A DNA stretch of 64,000 nt from an uncultured Acidobacteriaceae bacterium (GTDB lineage: Bacteria > Acidobacteriota > Terriglobia > Bryobacterales > Bryobacteraceae), in contig CAVUVF010000018.1 of assembly GCA_963744795.1 (NCBI GenBank), positions 347,530-411,529 on the forward strand. Direction: 5' to 3'. The notes below the pieces were generated by a model that was given only the letters and a program-made list of their open reading frames with translations, did no database searches and was not told the DNA's origin. The position numbers and the translations under genes were made by a program. This document shows positions 31,716 through 57,554 of the stretch, in pieces. The first letter of the stretch is position 1. Every line of letters starts with the position of its first letter.

Positions 31716-33824
31716 TTAGACGTTGCTTTCGCGGCCGCAGAACGTCTGGCCAGAACGGGCAAGTTCAACGAGTAGTGGCGCGGGTGCCCACAAATCGGAA
31801 CCAAACCGTTCTTCAAAGCCCTGGATTTTTTCGAGTACCGAATTGAGCCCCTCTAGATCCGCCCAGAACATCGGGCCGCCGCGCCAGGCAGGAAAACCAT
31901 AGCCGTGAACGAACACGACATCGATGTCTGACGCCCGTTGGGCCGTGCCCTCGGCAAGCACTCGGGCACCCTCGTTGACCAGACTGCAGATACAGCGGTC
32001 CACGATCTCCTCCCGGCTGATTCGACGTGGCGTCGAGCCCGGCTTCCGCGGCCGCTCGCTCCGCCAGCGAAGTGAGTTGTGAATTCGGCCGCGGTTTCCG
32101 GTCGCTCCCGTACTCCGACCAGCCGAGACCTGTTTTCTGTCCGAAATGGCCAGCATCGTAAAGTGCTTCCAAAACGCATCGAGCGTCGTACACCGGGCGG
32201 ATCCATCTGGCGGAACTGGTCTTCGATGTGGCGCGAGACGTCAATCCCTATGAGGTCGTCGACGGCCAGTGGGCCCATACTCATCCCGAACTGGACGAGC
32301 GCCTCGTTTACTTCTTCAACCGACGCGCCTTCCTCGACCAGAAATCTGGCTTCTCTCAGGTAGGGCCGGAAAATACGGTTCCCGATGAAACCAGGCCGAT
32401 TTCCGGCTAGAACCGCGATTTTGCCAAGCCGCTTGCCCAGAGACATGCATGTGGCGGTCACGCCGGGGTCGGTCTCGGCGCCGGGGACGACCTCCACGAG
32501 ACGCATGACATTTGCCGGGCTGAAAAAGTGAAGACCGATCGTTTTCTCCGATCGGCCGCTGCCCGAGGCAATCGCGTTTACGTCCAAGCTTGAGGTATTG
32601 GTGGCAAGAATGCAGTCCGGGCGGGCGGCTTTACCCAAGTCTTCCATCACCGCCTGTTTGACCGGAAGATTCTCAAAGACCGCCTCGACCACCAGGTCGA
32701 CCTGGTCAAAACCGCTGAAATCCGTTTGCGGGCGAATGCTTGCCAGGCGATTCTGGGCCACCTCCGGCGTCAGCCGATTCTTTGCTACAGCGCGGTCGAA
32801 ATTCGCTCGAATGTTCGCCATTCCCCGACCGAGCGCTTCGTTCGAAACTTCTTTGAGCAAAACCGGGAATCCGGACTGGGCGAAGGCGGTCGCGATCCCG
32901 GATCCCATCGTGCCGGCGCCCACGACGGCCACGCTACGCACCTCGTAGGCCTTCTCCTTGCCTGCTAAAGCCGGGACCTTGGCCGCGTTTCTTTCGCCAA
33001 AAAACAGGTGGATCAGCCCTTTCGATTCGCCGGAACGGAGGCACTGTTCGAAAAGCTCGGCTTCCCGCTGGACGCCGTTCGTCGAAAGAAAGCTCAGTGC
33101 TTGCCCATATCGCCTCCAGCGCGGCAGCAGGCGCTCGGGAGGGCCGAGCCTGTTCGACCCGCGCCTGAAGTGCTTCCAGCTTTTCGGCTTCACCCGGTCC
33201 GAACTTCGCGACGCGTTCGCGTGTTTTAACTGCCGTTTGCGCTGCTATCTCCCGTGCGAATCGGACCGCCTCATCCAGCAAAGCGCCTTCAATCACACGG
33301 TCAACGAGTCCGCAACTCAGTGCTTCTCGAGCACTGATCTGGCGACCTTCGATGCACATCTCCGCTGCCCGGACGGGTCCGACTAAACGGGGAAGCCGCT
33401 GAGTTCCTCCTGCGCCTGGAATGAGCCCTAGCTTCACCTCTGGCATGCCAAGTTGAGCGGTGGGAACTGCCAGGCGGTAATGCCCGCACATCGCGGTTTC
33501 GAGACCCCCGCCGAGCGCAGCCCCATGAATGGCCATGACAATCGGCTTGGGAGAGTCTTCAATCGCCTGCAAGGAGGGAAGGAGGTTCAACGGCGGAGCT
33601 TGCCCGGCGGCAATCCGGGCCAGTTCCCGAATGTCTGCGCCGGCGATGAAGGTATTGCCGGATCCGAGGACCACGATTGATCGGACGGAAGCGTTTGCGT
33701 TCAGATCGAGAACGGCGGAAGCAAGGCTCTCGGCGACTCTGGAACTCAGCGCATTGACAGGTGGGTTGTTGATCGCGATGACGCCAACGTCATCCTGCAA
33801 ACTCACTCGAACGAGTTCGTTCAT
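31716..33824 (-). CDS. Bifunctional enoyl-CoA hydratase / 3-hydroxyacyl-CoA dehydrogenase (FadB/FadJ-like), at least 3 frame breaks
   Basis: Crotonase region INNPPVNAL...FIAGADI...AIHGAALGGGLE and the HAD Rossmann fold VAVVGAGTMGSGIA...HFFSPANVMRLVEVV, with the C-terminal domain in ORFs 31813-32244 and 31716-32156. Confidence 0.85.
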
Positions 33825-33848: not shown

Positions 33849-34763
33849 TTATTCTCCGCGAAGCGGAACCGGGGCTTCCGGTAATTCCTCTTCACCCATC
33901 CCGTACCGCGAACGTCCTCGCCGCTCGCGATTTCCGCCCGGCCACTCGATCCTCAAATCACGGCAGACTTCGTCAAGCATGTCGAGCGTGGTTGACCTTT
34001 TCTCCATTGCGAACGCCGTAATGAGCAGATTGTCGCAAAGCAGGTTGATCAGGCGAGGGATTCCCCGGGATCTCACGTAAATTTCGTCCAGAACATCGAG
34101 CGGAAACACCGTCTGGTTCGGCATGCCGGCCCGGGCGAGTCTCGTTTCGATGTACGCGATCACTTCGTCAGGTGAAAGAGGGTCGAGCGTGCAGCGGAGT
34201 ACAATGCGCTGTTTCAACTGACGAAGATTGGAGGCGTCCAGCTTGCGGTCGAGTTCCGGCTGACCGGCCAGGATGATCTGCAGCAGCTTGCCGTGCCGGT
34301 TTTCCAGGTTGCCCAGTAATCGAATTTCTTCCAGTACTTCCCAGTCCAGGTTATGCGCTTCGTCCACGATCAGAGCGGTGGTTCTGCCGCGCTCAGCCTG
34401 TTGAATGAGCAGGGAGTTAAGGGCGAACAGCACTTCGGGCTTCGATTTCCGGTCGCATTGAAGGTCGAAATCGAAGGCCATCATCTCGAAAAATTGTTCC
34501 GGAGTAAGACGGGAATTGAAGATAAACGCAAACTCAATGCGTTGCGATTCCAGGTAATCCCGCAAACACTCGAGCATGGTTGTCTTGCCGGTTCCGACTT
34601 CGCCCGACAGTACGATGAAACCTTTCCGGCCTCGTACGCCGTAGATAAGATTTGCTAGTGCTTCCTCATGCTGAGGACTACGGTAGAGAAACTCCGGATC
34701 CGGACTGATTTCGAACGGGTTCTCGGCAAATCCGAAATACGCGTTATAGATCGCGCTTTGCAT
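33849..34763 (-). CDS. ExeA-like AAA+ ATPase (AAA_22; resembles PEP-CTERM/XrtA-associated ATPase, TIGR03015-like)
   Basis: Intact 304-aa ORF with FGFAENPFEISPDPEFLY, Walker A SGEVGTGKTT, Walker B LIVDEAHNL, ILAGQPEL and RGIPRLINLLCD. Confidence 0.8.
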   Translation of the reverse strand: MQSAIYNAYFGFAENPFEISPDPEFLYRSPQHEEALANLIYGVRGRKGFIVLSGEVGTGKTTMLECLRDYLESQRIEFAFIFNSRLTPEQFFEMMAFDFDLQCDRKSKPEVLFALNSLLIQQAERGRTTALIVDEAHNLDWEVLEEIRLLGNLENRHGKLLQIILAGQPELDRKLDASNLRQLKQRIVLRCTLDPLSPDEVIAYIETRLARAGMPNQTVFPLDVLDEIYVRSRGIPRLINLLCDNLLITAFAMEKRSTTLDMLDEVCRDLRIEWPGGNRERRGRSRYGMGEEELPEAPVPLRGE

Positions 34764-34869
34764 GTCTGATTAAACTCAACGAGCCGTGGAAAGGTACAGC
34801 GGCGTCTTACGAACCCCCGACACTCCCATCATAGAGGAATATCGGCAGTTCAGCCCCTAAGCTTTACCC

Positions 34870-36012
34870 TTAGGCGTCGAACTGAGCAATCGCCCAACCG
34901 GCCAAACTGGCTGGCTGCCCGCCTTTGAACACCACGCGGCGGGTTTTGGGAAAGATAGCGCCCTCGCGAAGTCCTCGACTCAAGCGCCGGAACCGTCCGG
35001 AGAATTTTCCGGAACGAATCCTGTTCGGTTTCGAGATAAGCGGATTTCGATACGAACCCACCGCCCCAGCCGAGGCAGAGCAAACAGCTGAGAGACGCCT
35101 CTCTGGCCTTGGCGAGTTCCTCCCGTAAGCGACTGACGGTGTTGACAATTCCGGAAAGCCCTGCGGTTTCGGCATAACGCCCCTGCGCCTCGATTTGGGC
35201 TTCGGCGAAGTCATTCGCCGCGTCCACGATCATCTTCGGGCTCGGCACGGAACGCCAGCCCAAAGCGCGCGCAATTTCCTGATTTTCGAGGAAGCTCCGT
35301 TCCTGCCAGGTGCCGGTGAACGAAGTACCCGGCGTAGCCATTTCCGCGAACAGAGGTGTGGCGTCGGACATTCGCTGGGGAGGGACGCTGCCCCTTCCGG
35401 TTACTTTCCAGGAGAGTTGGGGTTTCCCCCCTGCGCTGCGTTGACCGAGGCGGTCCGGGTTAAAAAGACCTTGAACGCTCCGTGCGGAATCGGCTCGCTA
35501 TCCGAGAGGGAAACTACTTTCGTCTGACTGGCGCCAGCGGAGCTTTCGGCTGCTTCGCTCACCCGGCGTGGCAAACGATCGTTCTCAAGGGACGACGCCA
35601 TGCGATCAATGGTGGCCTGGGACCAACGCGAATGCACCAATCCCGAGCGCAGAGCGCCTTTGAGGGCCGAAGCGGGGAGATAAGCCCCCCGGTAGCTGGA
35701 AGCAAATGTCGGAATAAATAGTACTTCCGAAGGCGTGGCGTTCCAAATGGCGGTGGAGTCCGCGTGCTCGAACGGAATTCGACGTTGCGAAAAATTCTGA
35801 GCAAAGCCGCCCCACGAGGCGAAATCCAGCTTGGTGGCTTTCCGTAATTGGTTCAGGTAGCCCTCTAGTCGGGGACCTCGCGCCAGCAATTTGAAAATCC
35901 TGTTTTGATCGAGTACGTTGACCTGGTCCTTCCAGACCATGTAATCGATCGGGGACAACGCGCGCCCGTCCCCGACGAGCAGTGGCGTAAGCGCGGTGAC
36001 TTTATACTTCAT
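34870..36012 (-). CDS. csm5: Type III-A CRISPR RAMP protein Csm5, frame breaks near 35420 and 34980
   Basis: N-terminus MKYKVTALTPLLVGDGRALSPIDYMVWKDQVNVLD, PASALKGALRS, Gly-rich loop LGWGGGFVSKS, and after a frame shift FPKTRRVVFKGGQPASLAGWAIAQFDA. Its ATG at 36012 overlaps the preceding coding frames. Confidence 0.8.
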
Positions 36013-37435
36013 CGTTACCCTGCCCAGTGTCCTCGGTCGTTTCCTTCGCTCCCTCTTCGGCGACGGTCCCCTCGGTTGTTTGCTCGACTTGCTCCGCCGT
36101 TGTTTCCGGCTCTGGAGCCGCCGACGGTCTCGCCAGCGTCGGCCGGCAACTGCTCCGGCTCCTGGCTCACGTCCAATTCGGCTTCGGCGGAGAGCGTCGG
36201 AACTTCAATCTCGCCGGCCGATTCGGACCGCTCTGATTGGGAAACGGCCGCGGTCGGCGGCTCGCACGGCGATAACGTTTCCGGCTCCTCTGCGCGTGCC
36301 TGCTCCCTCAGGAGTATCGGAAAGCGCAGTCTGCGGCGTCGTTTCCACTGCCCCTCTCCAGCGCGTGGGTGCCTCGGCGAACGGGAGCTTGCAGGTGAGG
36401 GCGAAGCCCGCACGGTAAACGGGATGAGAGAAGTTTTCCGGGGCCACGTCGACCGCAACCCCGACCGGTTCGTCTCGTACGGCCAGCACGGAACCTTCGG
36501 CGATCATCCGCAGCGCCTTTTTCGCAGCTCCGCTTCCCGCCCGGCTATCTACGTGTCCGTTTCGAGAGGTCAGCTGATAATCGCCGCTGCTCCAATCGAC
36601 GGAATCTTTGGGCCCCGGGGAATAGAGAGAAAGGAGCCAAAACAAAGGGGCCTGTTCACTTTCGGTTCCGGGCTCGGGCCCGCCGTCCGACGCTCCCGCG
36701 ACTTTGGGAAGGAGCAGCCTGGGCCAGGATCCGCTTTCGAATTCAGGGGCGGCCGTTTGTCCCCAGCCACTGCTCCGACGGCCTCCGAAACCCGTATCGG
36801 CGAGCAGCCGGAAGGCTCCGCGCACTCGTTCTCCCCACGTTGCTTCCGCGTTCTCATCCGCAAAACGCGCAACACCCCAGAGGCCCGCGCCGTTCTCGAA
36901 TTCGATGCACGCGATACTGCGCGCCGTCCCTGACGTTTCGCTTAAGCGGTCGACCCCGGCACTCGTCCGACTCGAATAACGAAACGGGCTTGTGCTCGGG
37001 CGGTCGCGCCGCAAGAGGCATCCGCTCTCTCCATCAACGATCCACTGGTCCGCCAATAGAGGCTGTGACAACAGCAGCGACTCGGTTAACGGACAACGGG
37101 ACGTACTGCGCCGCCGCCCAACGCATCTTGGACAGAAACACCGGACTTGGGCTGGTCAGCAAAGAGGCCGGAGGCGGCCACACGGTAGCCGGAGGCGGAG
37201 CAAACAGCGTGTCCCCTTGAAACGGAAACAATGAACTGAAGACAACCGCCGGAGTCGGACTGAGCGCTGTCGCTTCGAGCCACTCCGAAAGCAAGTCGAG
37301 GTGCTGCATGGCGAGCGTGACCGCTGAATACAGGCGGTCGCTTCGAAATGCGCTCTCGACTTGCCCTTGACCGATTCCAACTCCGCAGCGCCACGGTCCG
37401 AGCGGACGCAAGCGGATAACGACAGCCGGCTGCAT
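36004..37435 (-). CDS. csm4: Type III-A CRISPR RAMP protein Csm4 (Cas5 family) plus an acidic low-complexity C-terminal tail; frame breaks near 37090 and in 36110-36400. The core may end at 36205.
   Basis: N-terminus RLRPLGPWRCG...AFRSDRLYSAVTLAM and Gly-rich loop LLADTGFGGRRSSGWGQ. The ATG at 37435 abuts the csm3 stop (TAAATG). The tail reads EEPETLSPCEPP...EIEVPTLSAEAELDVSQEPEQLPADAGETVGG, then PEPETTAEQVEQTTEGTVAEEGAKETTEDTGQGNDEV. Confidence 0.75.
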
Positions 37436-38272
37436 TTAGGCCAGTTTTTCTCCGAAGTCGTCGGCAGCGACGAGTTGCTGCAAGGCTGCCAGTTCCGCGC
37501 CTGAAACAAGCGTGCTCTCGCTCGCTCCCTTCCCGTAGTAATCCTTGCTGCGCCAGGAAAGAGTCAGCGAGCCGAACGAGATGCGTCCGCTTCCCCGGCT
37601 GCCGCCCCCGCCGAGCGAATCGTCTTCGAGCAAGCGAAGCGCCTCGGGGATCCGCGCCACCAGCGGTTTGTCTTCCGGACACAGTACATCGAGAACCATG
37701 CGGAACCGGAATCGTGCGCCGGCGGGAACACGCTCGAGGGTGCGCGGATTCGCCTGAGACGTAATGCGATCGACGGCGTTCTCGCTCTTCACTTCGGTGA
37801 GTTCGTCATCCAGGTTTTCGCGCATCTGCTGCGTGATGCTGTCGAGAACCAGGGGCGAGTCGTAGACCGTGAGGCGTGCCGGCGTGGCAGCGGCCGATTC
37901 CGAGGCTTCACCACCAGACACTTTCTCCACGCGCGCGGGGCTTCGGCCAAAAAGGAGACACACTTCGTCGTCCGGCCGATCGCTCTGGTGGATGCGTACT
38001 TCCTGTCCGCGTCGTTTCGACACGTAAACAAGTTCATTCGGTACGGTGAGCCCAAGCGATTGCTCGAGCAGGCTGCGCAAACGCCCGCGAAGTGAACTGC
38101 CCGGAATGTAGGGTACGCCGAACGCATCTTTGACTACGGGATTGTCGGCGCCGCCGATTTCGAGCGACCCTTTACCGGCGCCGATATGGAGGCCGGTCTG
38201 GCACTGAATCTCGCCTTCGAGAATCAGCTTTCCAAGGAACGTCAGTTGCGTTCCTGCAGTATGAGAACTCAT
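37436..38272 (-). CDS. csm3: Type III-A CRISPR RAMP protein Csm3 (Cas7 backbone subunit)
   Basis: Intact 278-aa ORF with GLHIGAG, IGGADNPVVKD (Asp43 at the expected catalytic position), IPGSSLRGRLRS, LLFGR, TEVKSENAVDR and LGGGGSRGSGRISF. Confidence 0.9.
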   Translation of the reverse strand: MSSHTAGTQLTFLGKLILEGEIQCQTGLHIGAGKGSLEIGGADNPVVKDAFGVPYIPGSSLRGRLRSLLEQSLGLTVPNELVYVSKRRGQEVRIHQSDRPDDEVCLLFGRSPARVEKVSGGEASESAAATPARLTVYDSPLVLDSITQQMRENLDDELTEVKSENAVDRITSQANPRTLERVPAGARFRFRMVLDVLCPEDKPLVARIPEALRLLEDDSLGGGGSRGSGRISFGSLTLSWRSKDYYGKGASESTLVSGAELAALQQLVAADDFGEKLA

Positions 38273-38311
38273 GCTTTCTTTTCCTGTTCAATGGCCTCTT
38301 GGTCGTAGGCT

Positions 38312-38848
38312 CTATTCGTTGTAAGCAATGATGGCCTCGAACAGGTCACGGAACCGTTCGTAGCCGCGCGTATCGTTTTTGCGTGTGACCTGAAGCAATA
38401 GACGTTCGAGAGCATCGAGACTGCGGAGCGAGTGCCGCGCAATGGTGTACGCAAGACGCGCGCGCACCATCACGAACTCGTGTTGCCGTTCCGATTCGGG
38501 GGTTCGGGTTGCTCGCCGTACGGCATTGTAGAGACGCCGAAGCTGACTCTTTGTGCCGGAATCCATGTCGCGCATTCTGCTGACAACGACGTGCGCCTGA
38601 TTGTCCAGATAGAGACTATCGGAGATCAGCTTTTCGAGATCGATTTCGGGCGGTCCCTCGGGTCTGCGGTCACCGCCGCCCGGCCGGCCTCCTCCTCCAC
38701 GATTCTCGCGTCCGCGATCGCCCCGGCCTTCTCCGGATCCGCGTTCGTTGCCGCCGCGAGGACCTCCGCCGCCGGGCCGGCCTTCGCGTGGAGGCCGCGA
38801 TTCGCCCGAACGCCGCTCGTCGCCCTTCTTTTCTTCAGTTTCTGCCAT
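38312..38848 (-). CDS. csm2: Type III-A small subunit Csm2 (Cas11) with an Arg/Gly-rich N-terminal extension
   Basis: The C-terminal 105 aa or so fit Csm2: TKSQLRRLYNAV, ARLAYTIAR, FRDLFEAIIAYNE. The SD-like GGAAGGTGAT lies 4 nt before ATG 38848, so the GTG at 38857 given by the ORF track is a less likely start. The first 70 aa or so are RG/RGG-rich. Confidence 0.8.
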   Translation of the reverse strand: MAETEEKKGDERRSGESRPPREGRPGGGGPRGGNERGSGEGRGDRGRENRGGGGRPGGGDRRPEGPPEIDLEKLISDSLYLDNQAHVVVSRMRDMDSGTKSQLRRLYNAVRRATRTPESERQHEFVMVRARLAYTIARHSLRSLDALERLLLQVTRKNDTRGYERFRDLFEAIIAYNE

Positions 38849-38872
38849 CTGAATCACCTTCCGTCGAGAGCA

Positions 38873-40336
38873 CTAAACGCTCTCGCCTGCTGCCAATCGC
38901 GCCCACTCCAGACCAACACGCCCCGATGGGCGTAGCTTCACCGCGTTTGTTCTTTTACCGATCAAGCTGTTGATCACCGCGTTGCGCACATTGTTTACTT
39001 CTTTCCCTCGCGACTGAGGGATAACCCTGGCGAGCCGCATATAGGTCCGCCACGGCTTGTCGACCCGGGCCGCCTTTCTACGCGGGGAGCGAACGGCCGT
39101 GCCCTCGCGATAGACCGAGGCCAGATCATAGATGTATTGCGGCGGATATCCGAAATCGCGAACGAGTCTGACCAGGCTCGACTTCAATTCCTCCGCGTCG
39201 ACCAAGCGCTTCCACTCGAGAGTTCTGCCGAAAAGCGAGAATGTCCCCGGTTCCGTGGCCTTTGCCTGTCGCAACTGCGAAATGGCCGTTTGTAACACGG
39301 CGCCGATGGCTTCGCTGCCCTCGGGAGCGATGGCCAAAGACATACTGATGGTTTTGCCCTCGAAAGCCGACGCAGCCTGTACGTTCTCGCCGGCAAACTT
39401 GTCGAACAGTCGCTGAAGCTCACGCGCGAGCAGAAGCAGGGCGTCCCAGGAGCCCACGACCGCAAAGTCGTCGCCGCCGAGATAGACCACCGTCACTTTG
39501 CGCCAGAAATCCGGGAGTGTGCCGAGCAACGAAAGCTCACCGGCGAAAAACTCCTTGAACATGACGGAGAGATGAATGTGTTCTTCGGCCGTCCCGGCGC
39601 TTCGGAGCAGCGCGTCGAAGTTATCGACATCCCCGATCAGGATTCCCCATCGCGCTCTGCCGTCCGCTCTCTCTGCCAGTTGCTGCAACGCCAGGACCTG
39701 GCCCTCGTCGCTCATCGCCGTCCGGCGCGGGAACACAACCGCATCTTCAGTAAGGCTCGATTGCTCCTTGAGAGGCCATGAATACTGGCTTCCTTCCCAC
39801 TGGAGTTCCCCTGGGCGTTCAGAAGACCAGCCCACGCTCGACGCTGATACGACTCCTGCGGCAAATTGCGAGAAATAAGACGATACCGACTTCCCATCCT
39901 CGGTTGCAGACAGAAATGCAGTTACACTCGCTTCCCTGGACAGCGGTGCCGATCGAAAAGTAGATAGCGCATCATCCAGCCGCTTCCGCACTACCGGCCA
40001 CGCACCCAGATCCTCCGTGCTTGCCCAGATCAGCCGAAGATGATCCCCGGAAATGTCCGAAACCGCAGTTGCTGCGCGATTCAATAGTTCGTTGGCGCGG
40101 GGAAGATCTTCTTCCGTCAGAACCAGAAGAAACTGCTCGGAGCTTGCCGAGCCAAGGAGCATGCGAGATAGCTTCAGCTCGGCGAGGAGCGCACGCGGCA
40201 AGACTTCGCAGAAGAGACTGAGCCACGCGCACCGGCCCCGGAAGCTCAAAAGGGGGTCTTCATTGATCGCGGGCTCGGCAGCGAGAAAGTCGTTTCCACC
40301 AATCAGGTGGGCTTGCAAAAAGACCTGCAGCGACAT
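38873..40336 (-). CDS. cas10: Minimal Cas10 (Csm1-like) with GGDD cyclase palm and no HD domain
   Basis: Intact 487-aa ORF. GGDD (YLGGDDFAVVG) is encoded at 39467-39478. Palm Asp box WGILIGDVDNF, and a C-terminal helical D4-like region. It heads the csm2-csm5 operon. An in-frame TAA at 40451-40453 and the divergent gene at 40579 exclude a hidden N-terminal HD domain. Confidence 0.8.
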   Translation of the reverse strand: MSLQVFLQAHLIGGNDFLAAEPAINEDPLLSFRGRCAWLSLFCEVLPRALLAELKLSRMLLGSASSEQFLLVLTEEDLPRANELLNRAATAVSDISGDHLRLIWASTEDLGAWPVVRKRLDDALSTFRSAPLSREASVTAFLSATEDGKSVSSYFSQFAAGVVSASSVGWSSERPGELQWEGSQYSWPLKEQSSLTEDAVVFPRRTAMSDEGQVLALQQLAERADGRARWGILIGDVDNFDALLRSAGTAEEHIHLSVMFKEFFAGELSLLGTLPDFWRKVTVVYLGGDDFAVVGSWDALLLLARELQRLFDKFAGENVQAASAFEGKTISMSLAIAPEGSEAIGAVLQTAISQLRQAKATEPGTFSLFGRTLEWKRLVDAEELKSSLVRLVRDFGYPPQYIYDLASVYREGTAVRSPRRKAARVDKPWRTYMRLARVIPQSRGKEVNNVRNAVINSLIGKRTNAVKLRPSGRVGLEWARLAAGESV

Positions 40337-40578
40337 TGGAGAGGGATGGGCGCGCGCAAAACGAGCGGAATATGCGTTGTTAAGCGAGAACGCTATCAGC
40401 CTAGCACAGTGATGAAACCGGTCAGCTCGGCAGAGCTTTTGTTGCTTCGCTTACTTTTGACATCGGGTACAGTGGCAGTTCCAGGGCGCCCCAAGTGATC
40501 TCTCGATCGGGAACGTCTCAGCCAAAATCCCGCCCTAGCCGTCGCGTCCATGCATGGTCTGACCTCTATGCTTGAGAA

Positions 40579-41347: not shown

Positions 41348-42354
41348 CTAGATACCGCGTTGTGGCCGATAGCCCGGCCGGGCGCGTACCTTGTATTTCT
41401 TCATTGCTTCCGGGAGCAGCTCGATGTGCAGTTTCCGGAAGCCCTCGTTCGGATTCGGTTGCGGATAGTACGTGACGGTGTAGCTGTTGCCCAAGTCCTC
41501 GCGGATTGACTCGAACGCTTCTACCTGCTTCTGCCAGGTCTTGGCGAAGTAGCTCTTTCCACCCGTGCTGTTAGAAATCCGTTTGAAGATGCCGCTCGAG
41601 ATGGGATCCTTCGTGACCTCATTCGTCGAGATCACATATATCGGGATACCTTCGTCCTCGGCTACGGCCCGGACATCGTCAGGAGCAACCATGCTTGCGT
41701 TATCCGGCCCGTTCGAAAAGACTATGACTACTTTGCGCCCGGGTACTTTTGCCGCATCGCGCAGAGTCAGAAGCAAGCAGTTGTACAGCGCCGAGTCGTC
41801 GCCCGCTACCGCTTTTCGCAAGCCCGAGATGGCAAGTGCGCGATCCCGATTGAGTGAAACAGCCCGGTTCAGGTTGCGGCTGTACGTGTAAACGGCAATC
41901 GAATCGGCGCGGTCCAGACCGCGGATGAAGTCAGCGATCGCGTCCGAAGCGTACACGAATCCGCGATACATATAGTTGCTGGTATCGAAAAGGACGAAAA
42001 CGTTCGTTCCCGTGGCTTCAGACCGAAGATCCACTACTCGTCCGCCCCCTCCGTCTCCCGGGTCGCCGGCGCGCAGAGGCCGCGTTTCTCCCGTTTCGAG
42101 CACCTGGACCGGTGTGCGGTTACCTTCCGCGAACGTGGCGAGCTTCTGATTGATATCGTCCTCGTAAATCTTGAAATCCTTGGGCTTGAGCCCGTTGACG
42201 TATTTGCCTTTCGTATCCGTAACGGCAAAGCTCAGCACGACCATGTCCACCTTCACGTGGAATGTGGTCTGGTCCTGCTCTTGCGCATAGAGCCACGCAC
42301 CTGCCATTCCAAGCAGTACGGCAGTAGCAATAAGGGTGCGAACAGTTTTACTCA
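41348..42354 (-). CDS. VWA-domain protein of the acidobacterial VWFA type (TIGR03436-like), secreted
   Basis: GTG at 42354 gives the signal peptide VSKTVRTLIATAVLLGMAGAWLYAQ. The sequence then reads FHVKVDMVVLSFAVTDTKGKYVNGLKPKDFKIYEDD, with the VWA/MIDAS region VFVLFDTSNYM. The longer ORF reaching 42547 overlaps the upstream gene. Confidence 0.8.
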
Positions 42355-42365
42355 CAGTTTCCTTT

Positions 42366-45300
42366 TCAGTTCCCGGACGGCCGCGAAACCGAAGCTCTCT
42401 CGCTCTGGTGTCTGATGTTATTACCCGTCGTCTGTAATGACCGCAAAATTGCCGGCCAGTCTTCAAGATGAGTCGCGAAGATATTTTCGATCGTCGAACG
42501 ATTCCACTCGGGAATATAGGTCTCAAGCGCACCCACCGGCGTAGCAATTTCGTCGGCTAGCGCAGCATAGTACAAGTTGTTTGACTCCCACGTTTCGGCA
42601 AGTATCCGGCTCGAGTACCCCATAAGAGCCGGGAACGTTCGGAGCATGAGAAGGCCGGGCGTGTAGGAATGAGTTAAGGTCGGCTTTGGCGTTCCGAAAA
42701 CGCGGCCGATGGCTTCGGGCGAAACAGAGCTTGCATTCTGTTCTTTCACCGCGGCGATCTGGCGGGACGCTAGATCCGGGGCGACATTTGCCAGAGCGGG
42801 ATCTTCTCCGAGCGCGTAAAGAATCGCGGTTGGCACCTCCGCAATCACTTTAGAAAAGCTTTCCGACTGCAGGTGATCTCCCAGCCATTCCACTCGCCCC
42901 GGAGTCGAGTACCGCTTGTACGCGTCCATCACGGGAGCCTGAACGGCAGGATCAAGGGCAGCAGCCGCAATGAGATTCTTGCCGCGTTGAACGTTGAGAG
43001 CAACCCATCGAAGTTGCTCCGGTTTGACGTTGCGCCACCGGTTGATGGTGACGTTCGCAATCATCTGCGGGACAAGATCAGCCCAGATCAAAGCTTGTTC
43101 GCGGGTGGGGCTTAGAAAGTTCTGTTCGGCTTCGGCAATCGCATACGGGAGAGAAACCAGCGATCCAATCAGCCTTCCGCCCGCGCTGACGGGCCATCCC
43201 CCGCTGGACACTTCGGTATTCCGCCATGCCGCGGGTGAACTCTCCGGGCCGACAAAGTCATGAGCCCGGACAAACTGCGGATTCGTCAGGAGCAACTGAG
43301 CGCCGGACGGCGCGTAATAGCTGTACAGCAGGCCAACAAGAGAGTCGCGAAGGAAAGGAACGAGAGCGTCCTTCATCTCCCGCTTCTCCGAACCTCTTAG
43401 CATCCGCTCCAGGTTGAATTTGCGTTCCTGTTCGATATGACGATTGCTCCAATACCCGAGCGAGAACGAATTTTTCTCGTCTTGAGACAGAGATCCGCGC
43501 GCCGCCTCCGATTCCTCCAAGCGTTCGAGCTGGTCGGTGACGCTCTTCATCGTCTTGGCATCGACGCTGCCCTTCTTCTCGGCTAGAGCGAAGAGGCTGT
43601 CGACCGGAATGAGCCGCTGGGAATCGAATACCCGCAGGAACGTATCGGTCGGTGATGCCGGGCCGTTTCCCCCTGAACTGCGGAGCGGGCCGATCAGGAC
43701 TTCCGTAATCTGCTTTTGCCGCGAGCCGCCAGCCGAAGCGCCTGATGCGGAAGCAAGCAACAGATCGATCCCTGATTTCCCGGCGTCGAATAAGTCGCCT
43801 TGTGCGCGTATGTGGGCGAACGGAGTGATCAGCTTCGTGAAAACCGTATCTCTCGATCCGAGCGCGATCGCGTCCCGATGGGAAAGGATCCGGAAAAGCT
43901 CTGTGTTGGCCTGGAAGATACCGAGAGTGTCTGCGCGAAGAAGTACGTCCCGTATGGAGTTAATGTCGCTCGCGGTATCAAGGTAACGATTGATAGCCGC
44001 CTCAGACAGGAACGGTGAGTCCGCAAACAACGGATACTGTGCTCCGTACGCCCGGAAGCTGCTCACCATCCGCGAAGCGAGCGCTGGAGACATCGGCGCA
44101 GTTCGGGCGCGATCCACGTCGCTCAGTGTGAGGAATATCCGGAGCGGCTCATTCTCCACTGTTTTCCGGCTTAATGCGAAAAGCGCCTCGAGTACATCGT
44201 CGTTCGACCGCCACGACGTTGCAGATCGAGTGAGCTTGCCATCGTACTTCCCATGCGGATGTTTGATGAAAAGGTTTTTCCAGACGTCGATGTTCCCGGG
44301 GATATGCGGTTGTCCATTCGGGTCGATCCGCAGCGAGGTTGTCAGCAGCATCAGTTCGGTGCTCGAGCGGAAAACCGGACGCGCAGGACCGGGCGTCGTG
44401 ATCTTTCCTCGTAGCGCATCGTAGAAGCGGCGCAGCCGCTCCGGCTGAGTCAGATACGCGGCCGTTGGTCCGCTGATGCGGGACAGAGCATCGAAATAGC
44501 TGGCAGCCCAACCGTCATCGGTGGCCAGCAGCTTCTCATAGAAGGCGCCCGCATTCGACGGAGAAGTTCCCACCAGACTGCCCCAGGTCCGAGCCGGGCC
44601 TGGCACGACGGCTGCTCCGTTCTGGATCTGAAACATACCTCCGTAAAAATCGAGAACACCGGCGTACAGTTTCAGCCTCGGTGCAGGCATCTGCTTCCGG
44701 AGCGCTTCGGCCGTGGCGCGATCTATATGAGACAAGCCGAGATAGAGGCGGCAAAGTGAAGGGTCAGACAGGAACGCATCGATAAACTCCGGCTGATTTG
44801 TGCGGCCCAGAGCACTCATCCAGTAATCGGAGCCGTACAGGACGGGAATCTGCGTCGGCGCGTACGGAAATTCGAATTTGCGGTTGGCCCGCAGGTCCTG
44901 TTCGAGTTGCGCGATGGGAAATCCCGAGTCAACCGTCAGGAACGCTTTGGTCGGGTTCACCGTCTCGAGCACAATGTCGCCTCCGCAGGATCCGCGCATC
45001 CGATATCCGAGCGCCTTCAGAAGGGCGCCGGTCTGCTCGCTGTCGCATTGAGGGATGACGATCGTACGGGTGTTGCCTGTCAGGCTCTGGATTTCTCTGG
45101 CCTGCGCCAGATAGCGCACAACCAGGCGAAGATATTCGGTCTGTTGAAGCGCCTCGTTGCCCGAGGCCTCATAACCATTCGTGACGATATTTCTGGCCAG
45201 GGCCGGAAGCAGTTCTTCCGGAGCGAGATCCGGCGAAAGGGCCGCCATGCGCGCGAACGACGAGAGCGGACCCGGAATAGAGATCATCTTTGCCTGTGCC

Positions 45301-55758: not shown

Positions 55759-55785
55759 CCGACCTGTAAAATAGACGTTCTTCTT

Positions 55786-57554
55786 ATGGCTGCCGAGTTG
55801 GTTGTCGTCAACGGATCATCCGCTGGCACGCGCCACGACCTCACCAAGGGCGAGTTCTTCATCGGCCGATCGCCGTCTTCAAAGATCGTGATCAATGAAC
55901 CGGAAGTCGGCTGGCGGCATTGTCAGATCCGGCAGCATGAGCGGCCGCTTTCTGATCACAGATCTTCGAAGTTCGATCGGAACTTACGTGAACGGAATGC
56001 GATCTGCGGAGCGCTGGCTTGTCCGATCGCGACCAGATCGGGGTCGGCAAAACCATCCTGATGTTTCGCTCGGGCGAGGAGGCGAAAGAGGAGCGAGCTC
56101 CGGCTCGGCGCGAGCGACGTGAAGCCGGTGTTGTTGGCGTCCTGTTCGCTTGTTTTTCTGTTTCGCGCTCTGGCGGCCAGTTCGGCGAACGGTCAAAGCA
56201 GGCTTCTCCAGAACCAGATTATCCGTCTCGTGTCGGATCTGATCCCGGTAGATGCCGGGTATCTCGTTCTCGGGCTCAACCTTGCAAGCGTTATCGACCA
56301 ATACGAAAGCTGAATGGCCTGGGAGCCGGTGAGCTTGGAAAGGCCGGCCTCGCGAGGATCGCCGAAGAGGGTGCGTTCGAAGATTCTCAAACCGGCATGA
56401 TCGGCGTTCCGCTGTATCTCGCGAACGTCCTTGGCGGGGCATTGCTTTTGCAGACTAAAGCGAGCGAGCGCGAGCGGCTACCCGCTCATCTGGAGACTCT
56501 GACGGCCATTGCTTCTCTTGCTTCCATCGGGTTCGAAGCGAATCGGGAAGTAGAAAACCTGAAAGTGGAGAAGGCGCTTCTCGAGGAGCGGATTGGCGTA
56601 CCGAACGGGATCGTCGGCAACAGCCCTCCCATTCGGCGCCTGTTGACACTCATCGACCGTGTTGCTCCGCGAGATTCGACTGTCTTAATCACGGGCGAGA
56701 GCGGGACGGGCAAGGAATTGATTGCACGAGCCCTCCACCAAGGCAGCGACCGCCGCGATCATCACTTCATTGCGGTCAATTGCGCGGCACTGAGCGAGAA
56801 CCTCTTCGAGAGCGAGTTGTTCGGTCACGAGAAGGGAGCGTTCACCGGTGCCATCGCGCTCAAGAAGGGCCGATTCGAACTTGCGGAAGGCGGCACAATC
56901 TTCCTGGATGAAGTGGGCGAATTGGCGCTGCCGCTTCAAGCCAAGCTGCTGCGCGTTCTGCAACAGCGGGAATTTGAGCGCGTTGGAGGCACGCAGGTGC
57001 ACAGTCTCGATATCCGCGTGATCGCCGCAACAAATCGGGATCTGCAGGAAGATGTTCGCGAAGGCAAATTCCGAGAAGATCTGCTCTATCGGCTGAACGT
57101 AGTCACGCTGGAGTCGCCTCCGCTGCGGGACCGCAAAGAGGATATTCCGATCCTGGCACGCTATTTCCTCGAGAGCTCGGCGAAGCGCTGCAAGCGACAG
57201 GTGGAAGGGGTCTCGAAAGAGGCCGAAGAAATCCTGATGCAGTATTCCTGGCCGGGCAACGTGCGCGAACTCGAAAACGCAATGGAACGTGCCGTTGTGC
57301 TTGGCGTGTCCGATGCCGTTCTACCCGAAGATCTGCCCGAAGCAATGCTGGAATCTGCACCACGCGAATCAGGCGCGAAGTATCATTCCTCTCTCGGCCA
57401 GGCAAAGCGTGAAGCGATCTTGGATGCCTATGTCCAGGGCGGCGGCGACTACAAACAGGCGGCCCGTCTGTTGGGTCTCCATCCCAATTACCTTCTGCGC
57501 CTGGTTCGAAACCTGAACTTGCGCGACGAAATCAATCGCCGCTTAGGCGAGTAA
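55786..57554 (+). CDS. Sigma-54-dependent transcriptional activator with N-terminal FHA and central GAF-like domains, about 3 frame breaks in 55930-56330
   Basis: FHA region [25 protein letters not shown]...[17 protein letters not shown]+ module with [14 protein letters not shown] and DEVGEL. C-terminal Fis-type [22 protein letters not shown]. Confidence 0.85.

Follow-up and report, generated by a model that had tools for sequence, protein, structure and literature searches.

The Csm operon and its products

The 64-kb stretch of contig CAVUVF010000018.1 from an uncultured Bryobacteraceae bacterium analysed here (the window) carries on its minus strand, at positions 34870-40336, an operon encoding a type III-A-like (Csm) effector of the CRISPR-Cas class. 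A preliminary description of the sequence had read five genes at this place, in the order cas10-csm2-csm3-csm4-csm5. For typing we used Pfam, NCBIfam (TIGRFAM) with curated cutoffs, PADLOC, and Foldseek searches against the PDB. All five genes were found where they had been described, and profile and fold matches agreed with the identities given to them as well as with the type III-A-like assignment of the whole (Table 1). The fine structure also held: the cas10-csm2 gap, given as 15-24 nt, measures 15 nt to a GTG and 24 nt to an ATG start codon, the csm3 stop codon touches the csm4 ATG, and csm5 begins with the ATG at 36012 and ends with the TAA at 34872-34870. As a whole, the locus is better described as a lineage-fixed type III-A variant than as a single odd locus.

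Table 1. Coordinates and assignments of the operon genes and adjoining features in the 64-kb window.
Feature	Position	Strand	Description
cas10 (csm1-like)	38873-40336	-	487 amino acids (aa); palm1-like N-terminal region, palm2 with GGDD, C-terminal helical domain
csm2 (Cas11 small subunit)	38312-38857	-	181 aa; PF03750, TIGR01870
csm3 (Cas7 backbone RNase)	37436-38272	-	278 aa; TIGR02582; catalytic Asp in GGADNPVV
csm4 (Cas5)	36015-37435	-	three reading frames here; TIGR01903, PF17953
csm5 (Cas7-like cap subunit)	34870-36012	-	three segments here; PADLOC Csm5, TIGR01899
cas10 promoter and structured leader	40337-40408	-	conserved in relatives; two-hairpin 5' untranslated region (UTR)
ExeA/GspA-like AAA+ (AAA_22) ATPase	33849-34763	-	304 aa; PF13401, TIGR03015 sub-cutoff
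csm5-ATPase spacer motif	34828-34850	-	conserved block across 66 aligned spacers

Comparisons were made with 166 relative loci, which together with the window comprise 2.35 Mb of DNA. The 80 genome loci (L001-L080; 1.56 Mb including the window) are the best 80 of 127 places with a cas10 relative, taken from a scan of one genome per species; the remaining 86 loci add 0.79 Mb. At least 554 additional cas10 relatives came from a metagenome scan; among them is a second large clade, whose Cas10 is 44-51% identical.

The protein set bears the marks of type III-A. A Cas10 with palm domains, as expected of a type III system, was recognised by PF22335 (Cas10-Cmr2_palm2, 61.5 bits), by fold matches to Csm1 and by its GGDD motif. 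The small subunit is of the Csm2 type (TIGR01870, 41.5 bits, cutoff 30.6; PF03750, 39.7 bits, cutoff 24.8), and Csm3 scored 200 bits against its equivalog model, whose cutoff is 90. Alignment of Csm3 to solved Csm3 structures (E=1.7e-41) matched the catalytic Asp of GLHIGAGKGSLEIGGADNPVVKD; this residue was present in all 138 loci counted, and the motif is invariant in distant loci too. Csm4 and Csm5, both broken in the window, were typed on their pieces: Csm4 by TIGR01903 (28.5 and 87.9 bits on two pieces, the larger fragment passing the cutoff of 55) and PF17953 (Csm4_C, 57.4 bits), and Csm5 by PADLOC (E=6e-13 and 2e-7 on two pieces), with TIGR01899 at 35.3 bits on the first piece, just below its cutoff of 38.3.

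Against the Csm1 equivalog model TIGR02578, Cas10 scored 126.5 bits (cutoff 170) and aligned to model positions 484-730 of 753 only, which falls short of a full-length Csm1 equivalog. Its AlphaFold2 model (predicted local distance difference test, pLDDT, 71; predicted template modelling score, pTM, 0.76) gave 50 top PDB matches in Foldseek, all of them type III-A Csm1 (probability 1.0; query-normalised template modelling score, TMq, 0.5-0.68). The solved Csm1 chains matched have 616-801 residues, and the Cas10 found here is ~270-300 residues shorter. What is absent is the N-terminal HD nuclease domain: no profile matched an HD domain on Cas10, and its N-terminus, MSLQVFL, runs straight into the palm1-like region. 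Since MSLQVFL is invariant among relatives, the start of cas10 is genuine. The HD domain is found on Cas10 in ~65% of III-A systems and is thus typical, not obligatory.

The palm2 cyclase motif of the window Cas10 reads YLGGDDFAVVG. Among 157 Cas10 sequences of the family, GGDD was found in 132, GGDE, GGED or GGEE in 13 and a degenerate motif in 12 (GGDG in six, AGDG in two, and GGNS, GGDN, EGEG and GGND in one each). Further variants (SNDG, GVAG, GASD and GLGE) were seen when 14 cluster representatives were aligned with the window Cas10. Where loci with a degenerate motif had sufficient flank, csm3, csm5 and the ATPase gene downstream of it were kept in 9/9 cases. Because such dead-motif lineages retain the entire operon, the cyclase output would seem to be dispensable.

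Csm2 is composed of a low-complexity, G/R-rich N-terminus of ~70 aa (38648-38857) and a strongly conserved 112-aa helical domain; those tblastn matches that covered this domain alone showed 87-97% identity in both clades. All four family Csm2 sequences that were translated have an N-terminal low-complexity extension of 66-137 aa, acidic and Pro-rich first and then Arg/Gly/Pro-rich. A second low-complexity region is the acidic tail of Csm4 (~135 aa; about 36015-36400), which is confined to the window's clade and in some loci contains in-frame tandem repeats. Besides the window, these regions of Csm2 and Csm4 were viewed in L082, L083, L086, L155 and L029.

The breaks in csm4 and csm5 could be mapped by tblastn and DNA alignment. 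The csm4 frame shifts through 1-nt indels near 37089 and 36284, and csm5 loses its frame twice, near 35428 within six consecutive G and again near 34983, both times by a 1-nt indel. Single-base frameshifts occur throughout the window, which splits into ~100 non-overlapping pieces of open reading frames (ORFs); the fadB-like gene (31722-33824) has three of them and runs through four frames, and an essential class I aminoacyl-tRNA synthetase lies in three pieces. In the close relative L001 (Cas10 85% identical), which lies outside the long-contig MFD bins, all three genes are intact and code for 480 aa (csm4), 382 aa (csm5) and 701 aa (fadB). Because the tRNA synthetase and fadB are split too and the L001 genes are whole, the frameshifts in csm4 and csm5 are probably assembly errors of long-read origin and not operon decay.

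Distribution and inheritance in Bryobacterales

Short Cas10 proteins of this kind proved to be numerous. A word-indexed search gave 2286 homologues, the best 120 of which are mostly 483-527 aa long, with a few partial ones. Profile search of 1.84 billion representatives yielded ~20 full-length clusters at 50% identity (~470-495 aa; 290-770 bits), and canonical Csm1 proteins (~780 aa) reached about 90-109 bits only in the same search. As the ~20 clusters stand well apart from canonical Csm1, the short Cas10 is a distinct clade of old standing rather than the product of a recent truncation. All 80 genome loci belong to Acidobacteriota, and every record named to family or order is Bryobacteraceae or Bryobacterales. 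The operon is found on complete chromosomes, e.g., OZ255847.1, OZ255821.1, OZ255713.1, OZ255834.1 and OY969780.1, and no family member was found on plasmids (72,556 records) or among phage records (50,697); an origin from a mobile element was therefore rejected.

The preliminary description had proposed a survey of related Acidobacteriota for the same array-less synteny, and this synteny was indeed found conserved across Bryobacterales genomes, with 166 loci lacking an array. Of the 80 genome loci, 72-76 have csm2-csm5 behind cas10 in unchanged order, the gaps lying mostly at ends of a contig or of the stored stretch. Among the 86 further loci with enough flank, csm3 was present in 50/51 and csm5 in 25/26. 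The more distant part of the family was sampled by four representative clusters, two of which have the same six genes; in one the contig ends after csm5, and one (L085) has cas10 alone. At the metagenomic locus L085 (9284-12080) the short cas10 stands in its usual upstream context, and a sulfatase gene takes the place of csm2-csm5 and the ATPase gene; here the operon is lost and a solo Cas10 is left. Two contigs of one metagenome-assembled genome (MFD09603.bin.2.283; L033 and L035) each carry the operon, with equal Cas10, Csm2 and Csm3 identities to the window, which represents either a duplication or redundancy of binning or assembly.

The flanks, first described as core metabolism and not an obvious defence island, are ordinary chromosomal genes: histidine kinases, LytTR regulators, MacB/FtsX permeases, a CLC channel, thiolase and a short-chain dehydrogenase/reductase (SDR). 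Upstream of cas10, a divergent SDR gene is found in 52/80 loci and, further upstream, a vWA protein and a 973-aa protein without Pfam domain in 47/80; downstream, beyond the ATPase gene, gene content varies among the 80 loci. The 973-aa protein (42366-45287, minus strand in the window; 973-1123 aa across loci) shares 50% identity with its counterpart at a distant locus. Paired with the acidobacterial vWA gene (41348-42355, minus strand), it was also seen in L081 (1056-5495), L085 (4701-9097) and a few metagenome loci. The standing of this pair beside cas10 may reflect old synteny or a functional link.

To compare the divergence of the operon with that of its neighbours, we used the 28 loci with all genes intact (pairwise p-distances, Mantel test). 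Cas10 distances correlated with those of the 973-aa neighbour at r=0.83 (Mantel p=0.001), at least as strongly as did the distances of two non-Cas proteins, vWA and the 973-aa protein, with each other (r=0.55). Among the proteins compared, the mean p-distance was lowest in Csm3 (0.17), followed by the ATPase (0.18), vWA (0.22), the 973-aa protein (0.33) and, at 0.34 each, Cas10 and Csm5. Csm3 is thus ~83% identical on average, and loci with Cas10 at 35-43% identity still have a Csm3 that is 65-73% identical. Taken together, these comparisons suggest that the operon is inherited vertically, as a fixed chromosomal gene set of Bryobacterales and not as a mobile defence island.

Arrays, accessory genes and regulatory elements

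According to the preliminary description, neither a CRISPR array nor cas6, cas1, cas2, csm6/csx1 or genes for CARF/SAVED proteins are found in the window. We examined this by several means, in the window and in the relative loci, and found nothing to the contrary. Tandem Repeats Finder detected nothing array-like in the window; a k-mer scan, which recovered a planted control array of four repeats, found no array there; no exact 16-mer is repeated at 45-110 nt spacing; and Rfam, including its CRISPR direct-repeat families, had no match in the window at either threshold. PADLOC, run on 92 stop-to-stop ORF pieces spanning the rest of the window, detected no Cas6, Cas1, Cas2, Csm6 or Csx1. Likewise, no array was found by the k-mer scan in the 1.56 Mb of the 80 genome loci and the window or in the 0.79 Mb of the 86 further loci, and 141 families of recurrent neighbour ORFs contained no Cas6, Cas1, Cas2, Csm6, Csx1, CARF or SAVED protein by PADLOC. 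Array candidates in L081, L085 and L155 were rejected because Tandem Repeats Finder showed them to be in-frame coding repeats in tandem, their periods (39, 45 and 48 nt) all being multiples of 3, and one in L029 as coding sequence inside the csm4 tail.

Because no array was found in the window or the 166 loci, and no Cas6 or adaptation module (Cas1-Cas2) in the window or the recurrent neighbour families, the system falls short of a CRISPR-Cas system in the full sense. The type III cyclic oligoadenylate (cOA) pathway lacks its CARF/SAVED sensor-effector (Csm6, Csx1, Can1/2) in the window and in the recurrent neighbour families. The single CARF-like call in the window, a PADLOC match to RtcR_PspF2 'CARF_AAA_HTH' (55992-57554, plus strand; E=1.5e-110), was rejected: the protein (55759-57554, plus strand) is an activator of the sigma-54 class whose N-terminal piece is FHA-like; it has no CARF or RtcR Pfam domain and matched through its AAA+ and HTH parts alone. 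Such sigma-54/FHA activators are a trap for automated CARF calls.

That an effector without an array of its own is unusual, as the preliminary description had it, could be upheld in part. In most type III systems Cas6 apparently acts in trans, and many type III loci have no array (PMC12669027). Moreover, 133 of 1113 type III loci have a cyclase but neither an HD domain nor an effector, for which sharing between loci was proposed (Hoikkala et al., 2024, PMC11229360). A missing array and Cas6 are, accordingly, not unusual for type III; what is unusual is the vertical conservation across an order and the slow evolution. Ca. Solibacter usitatus, a member of the order Bryobacterales with a completely sequenced genome of 9.9 Mb (CP000473), reportedly has cas genes and no CRISPRs. 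The numbering of these genes (region Acid_0891-Acid_0896) is compatible with csm genes in a six-gene cluster with a divergent Cas10 that would have escaped annotation, a putative link to the operon. A homologue search started from a distant clade gave only names of metagenome-assembled genomes, and among the papers searched no other one cites these locus tags.

A stretch of ~75 nt ahead of the cas10 ATG, with the promoter and a structured leader of ~65 nt, is conserved in 80/80 aligned sequences. It begins with an extended -10 element (consensus TGTGTTAGCCT; TGTGCTAGGCT at 40398-40408 in the window), followed by a 5' UTR of ~55 nt that in most relatives forms two hairpins and terminates in CGCTACGACC. 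The second hairpin (P2) is paired to 94.8%, with compensatory changes at 5/6 pairs, and its covariation score exceeded those of 500/500 shuffles and of all slid controls; in the window's own clade P2 is degenerate. Distant loci have a similar extended -10 ahead of cas10 and no hairpins. Rfam has no family matching the leader. Conservation extends into the gene: over the first ~30 nt of cas10, synonymous positions show unusual conservation (e.g., CAA, 99%). A search for targets complementary to the leader, which covered the window and up to 10 kb at 79 loci, found none.

The gene next to csm5, between it and the fadB-like gene, was not part of the preliminary description. It encodes an ExeA-like ATPase (PF13401, 92.7 bits) that scored 293 bits against TIGR03015, the XrtA/PEP-CTERM-associated ATPase, and thus stays under the cutoff of 324.5. 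Its immediate neighbours are csm5 and fadB, and no exosortase family stood among the 25 listed of the 64 Pfam families of the window, so that it was not assigned to the XrtA/PEP-CTERM group. The AlphaFold2 model of the ATPase is poor (pLDDT 51.5), and no sequence relative was found in the PDB. The gene adjoins csm5 in 66/80 genome loci and, among the 86 further loci with enough flank, in 12/24, including the distant L081 and L086. The csm5-ATPase spacers of 66 loci (~100-150 nt) share the consensus AATTGCCGAT-N8-TATGAT. This motif probably serves the ATPase gene itself, as promoter or operator; with a spacing unlike that of a standard -35/-10 pair, it could be an operator or a promoter of non-standard kind. 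By its adjacency, the ATPase is a candidate accessory partner of the effector.

Elsewhere in the window, away from the operon, we noted a dGTPase-like protein (PADLOC E=8e-59), two 'mad2' matches, a protein with a Mut7-C RNase domain, CstA and five pieces of outer-membrane beta-barrel proteins.

Possible function and relation to known systems

We propose that the operon encodes a host-fixed RNA-guided RNase, which receives its guide from elsewhere and probably has a role other than conventional defence; in our judgement the arguments for and against this reading are evenly balanced. Csm3, Csm4, Csm5, Csm2 and Cas10 would assemble on a guide RNA encoded elsewhere, and the complex, with no DNase arm, would bind complementary transcripts and cleave these at its Csm3 sites. 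The palm of Cas10 would, in most lineages, still be able to make a nucleotide signal, whose output would be secondary or dispensable. Such a complex could serve the host in RNA surveillance or regulation, independently of a linked array with its fast turnover; its guide might be a non-CRISPR RNA, and the adjacent ATPase might be its partner. RNA is the predicted target because the HD domain is absent, the cyclase is mostly intact and the Cas7 Asp is invariant. Judged by these motifs, RNA cleavage appears to be the universally conserved activity, with nucleotide signalling usually kept, and the complex most likely still works as a Csm RNA-targeting complex.

Several observations weigh against a role outside defence. 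As is usual for signalling systems of the ordinary kind, the cyclase motif is retained in 92% of the family. Neither a guide RNA nor a target was identified, and the search for complements of the leader, which covered the window and up to 10 kb at 79 loci, found none. Arrays, Cas6 and CARF/SAVED effectors may lie elsewhere in the genomes, the scans having covered the operon loci, and use of all three in trans is frequent in type III (PMC12669027, PMC11229360). The cas genes of S. usitatus are tied to the operon by gene numbering only. Finally, with its adjacency at 12/24 in the second set and an upstream motif of its own, the ATPase may be a mere syntenic neighbour.

The main rival is an ordinary antiviral III-A effector that uses arrays and Cas6 in trans and whose cOA activates CARF/SAVED effectors encoded elsewhere; we regard it as a realistic possibility, though not one we would expect to prove right. 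It agrees with what is typical of type III for Cas6 and arrays (PMC12669027) and with the 133/1113 comparable effector-less loci, which tend to occur in genomes with multiple type III loci (PMC11229360), as well as with the intact GGDD of the window and 132/157 relatives and the intact Csm3 Asp. It is less easily reconciled with the 166 loci, which show neither an adjacent array nor accessory genes that recur, with distances that track those of a neighbouring gene, order-wide synteny and slow evolution, all atypical for defence genes, and with retention of the operon where the cyclase motif is dead. The complete genome of S. usitatus, with its reported cas genes and no CRISPR, also speaks against it, as far as the putative link to the operon holds.

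The proposal of a host-fixed RNase can be taken further, to an order-wide domesticated, array-free Csm effector with one or more fixed non-CRISPR guides, cleaving or masking transcripts of the host or of resident elements as a housekeeping regulator. We put this forward tentatively and with more doubt than confidence. The ExeA-like ATPase and the low-complexity tails of Csm2 and Csm4 may contribute to it, and in its boldest version the guide would be the operon's own structured mRNA leader.

For the leader as a guide, the hairpin and CGCUACGAC upstream of the cas10 ATG would be a lone repeat with its 8-nt tag, and the next 30-35 nt, that is, the end of the leader and the first cas10 codons, a fixed guide or an autoregulatory site. 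A stem-loop followed by ...CGAC is reminiscent of the end of the Thermus repeat, AUUGCGAC, and both the covariation of P2 and the conserved synonymous sites at the start of cas10 would fit. We nevertheless find this highly improbable, given that in the window's clade both hairpin and tag are of degenerate form and that distant clades with the operon lack them, that the leader has neither a complementary target at the loci searched nor a match among the Rfam CRISPR repeats, and that a regulatory 5' UTR accounts for the same data. Least credible is the view that a lost CRISPR-Cas system has left a decaying remnant here, csm4 and csm5 already being pseudogenes: two frameshifts in each gene, the missing array and accessory genes and the solo cas10 of L085 would suit it, but frameshifts are window-wide, the L001 copies of csm4, csm5 and fadB are intact, and the family is under purifying selection with an invariant catalytic Asp.

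Comparison with known systems places the operon closest to the type III-A Csm complexes of Staphylococcus epidermidis, Streptococcus thermophilus and Thermococcus onnurineus in gene order. Like these, it has a Csm3 that matches the equivalog model and keeps its Asp, recognisable Csm2, Csm4 and Csm5, and a Cas10 whose model superposes on Csm1 and keeps GGDD. It differs from them in the length of Cas10 (487 aa vs. about 750-800 aa), which has neither an HD domain nor, among its conserved residues, a four-cysteine zinc finger, and in having no linked array, cas6, csm6 or cas1/2, an ExeA-like ATPase gene being often adjacent instead. The N-terminal extension of Csm2, the acidic tail of Csm4 and the vertical, slow evolution set it apart as well.

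With type III-G as well as III-H, the operon shares reductive evolution and the lack of an adaptation module and of CARF/SAVED ancillary genes, and III-G is array-less too (PMC12669027). III-G and III-H, however, have an inactivated cyclase, an apparently active HD domain and no conserved catalytic Asp in Cas7, and are predicted to cut DNA (PMC12669027). The Bryobacterales operon shows the reverse in each of the three motifs and cannot be classified as III-G or III-H; the hosts differ also, being Sulfolobales or other archaea for those types. Compared with the effector-less, cyclase-positive and HD-negative type III loci (PMC11229360), the operon represents one coherent, order-specific clade with conserved synteny. 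Our literature search, which included PMC12669027 and PMC11229360, found no description of a Bryobacterales Csm family.

To our knowledge, exaptation of CRISPR effectors for roles other than defence is well documented only by way of transposons and plasmids, i.e., in the CRISPR-associated transposons (CASTs) and in type IV. As in these exapted effectors (Tn7-like CASTs I-F3, I-B2 and V-K; type IV), the nuclease arm and adaptation genes are lost from the operon, while guide-dependent target binding would be retained. The association with an AAA+ ATPase broadly recalls TnsC/TniB of CASTs, a resemblance by kind only. Unlike CASTs and type IV, the operon has no transposase, TniQ or mobile context; it is chromosomal and vertically inherited, keeps its RNase site and is tied to the ATPase by adjacency.

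The compact Cas10 and the highly conserved core of Csm3 and Csm2 offer material for biochemistry, and Solibacter, Bryobacter and Paludibaculum, cultured members of the order, are possible hosts for genetics if they carry the operon. Even if arrays are used in trans, the case would still be unusual, as a defence effector that behaves like a core gene. The family opens to testing the long-standing question whether class 1 effectors can function with non-CRISPR guides. If the reading of a host-fixed RNA-guided RNase is true, the operon would be a candidate case of RNA-guided RNA targeting domesticated by the host itself, in an abundant order of soil bacteria.

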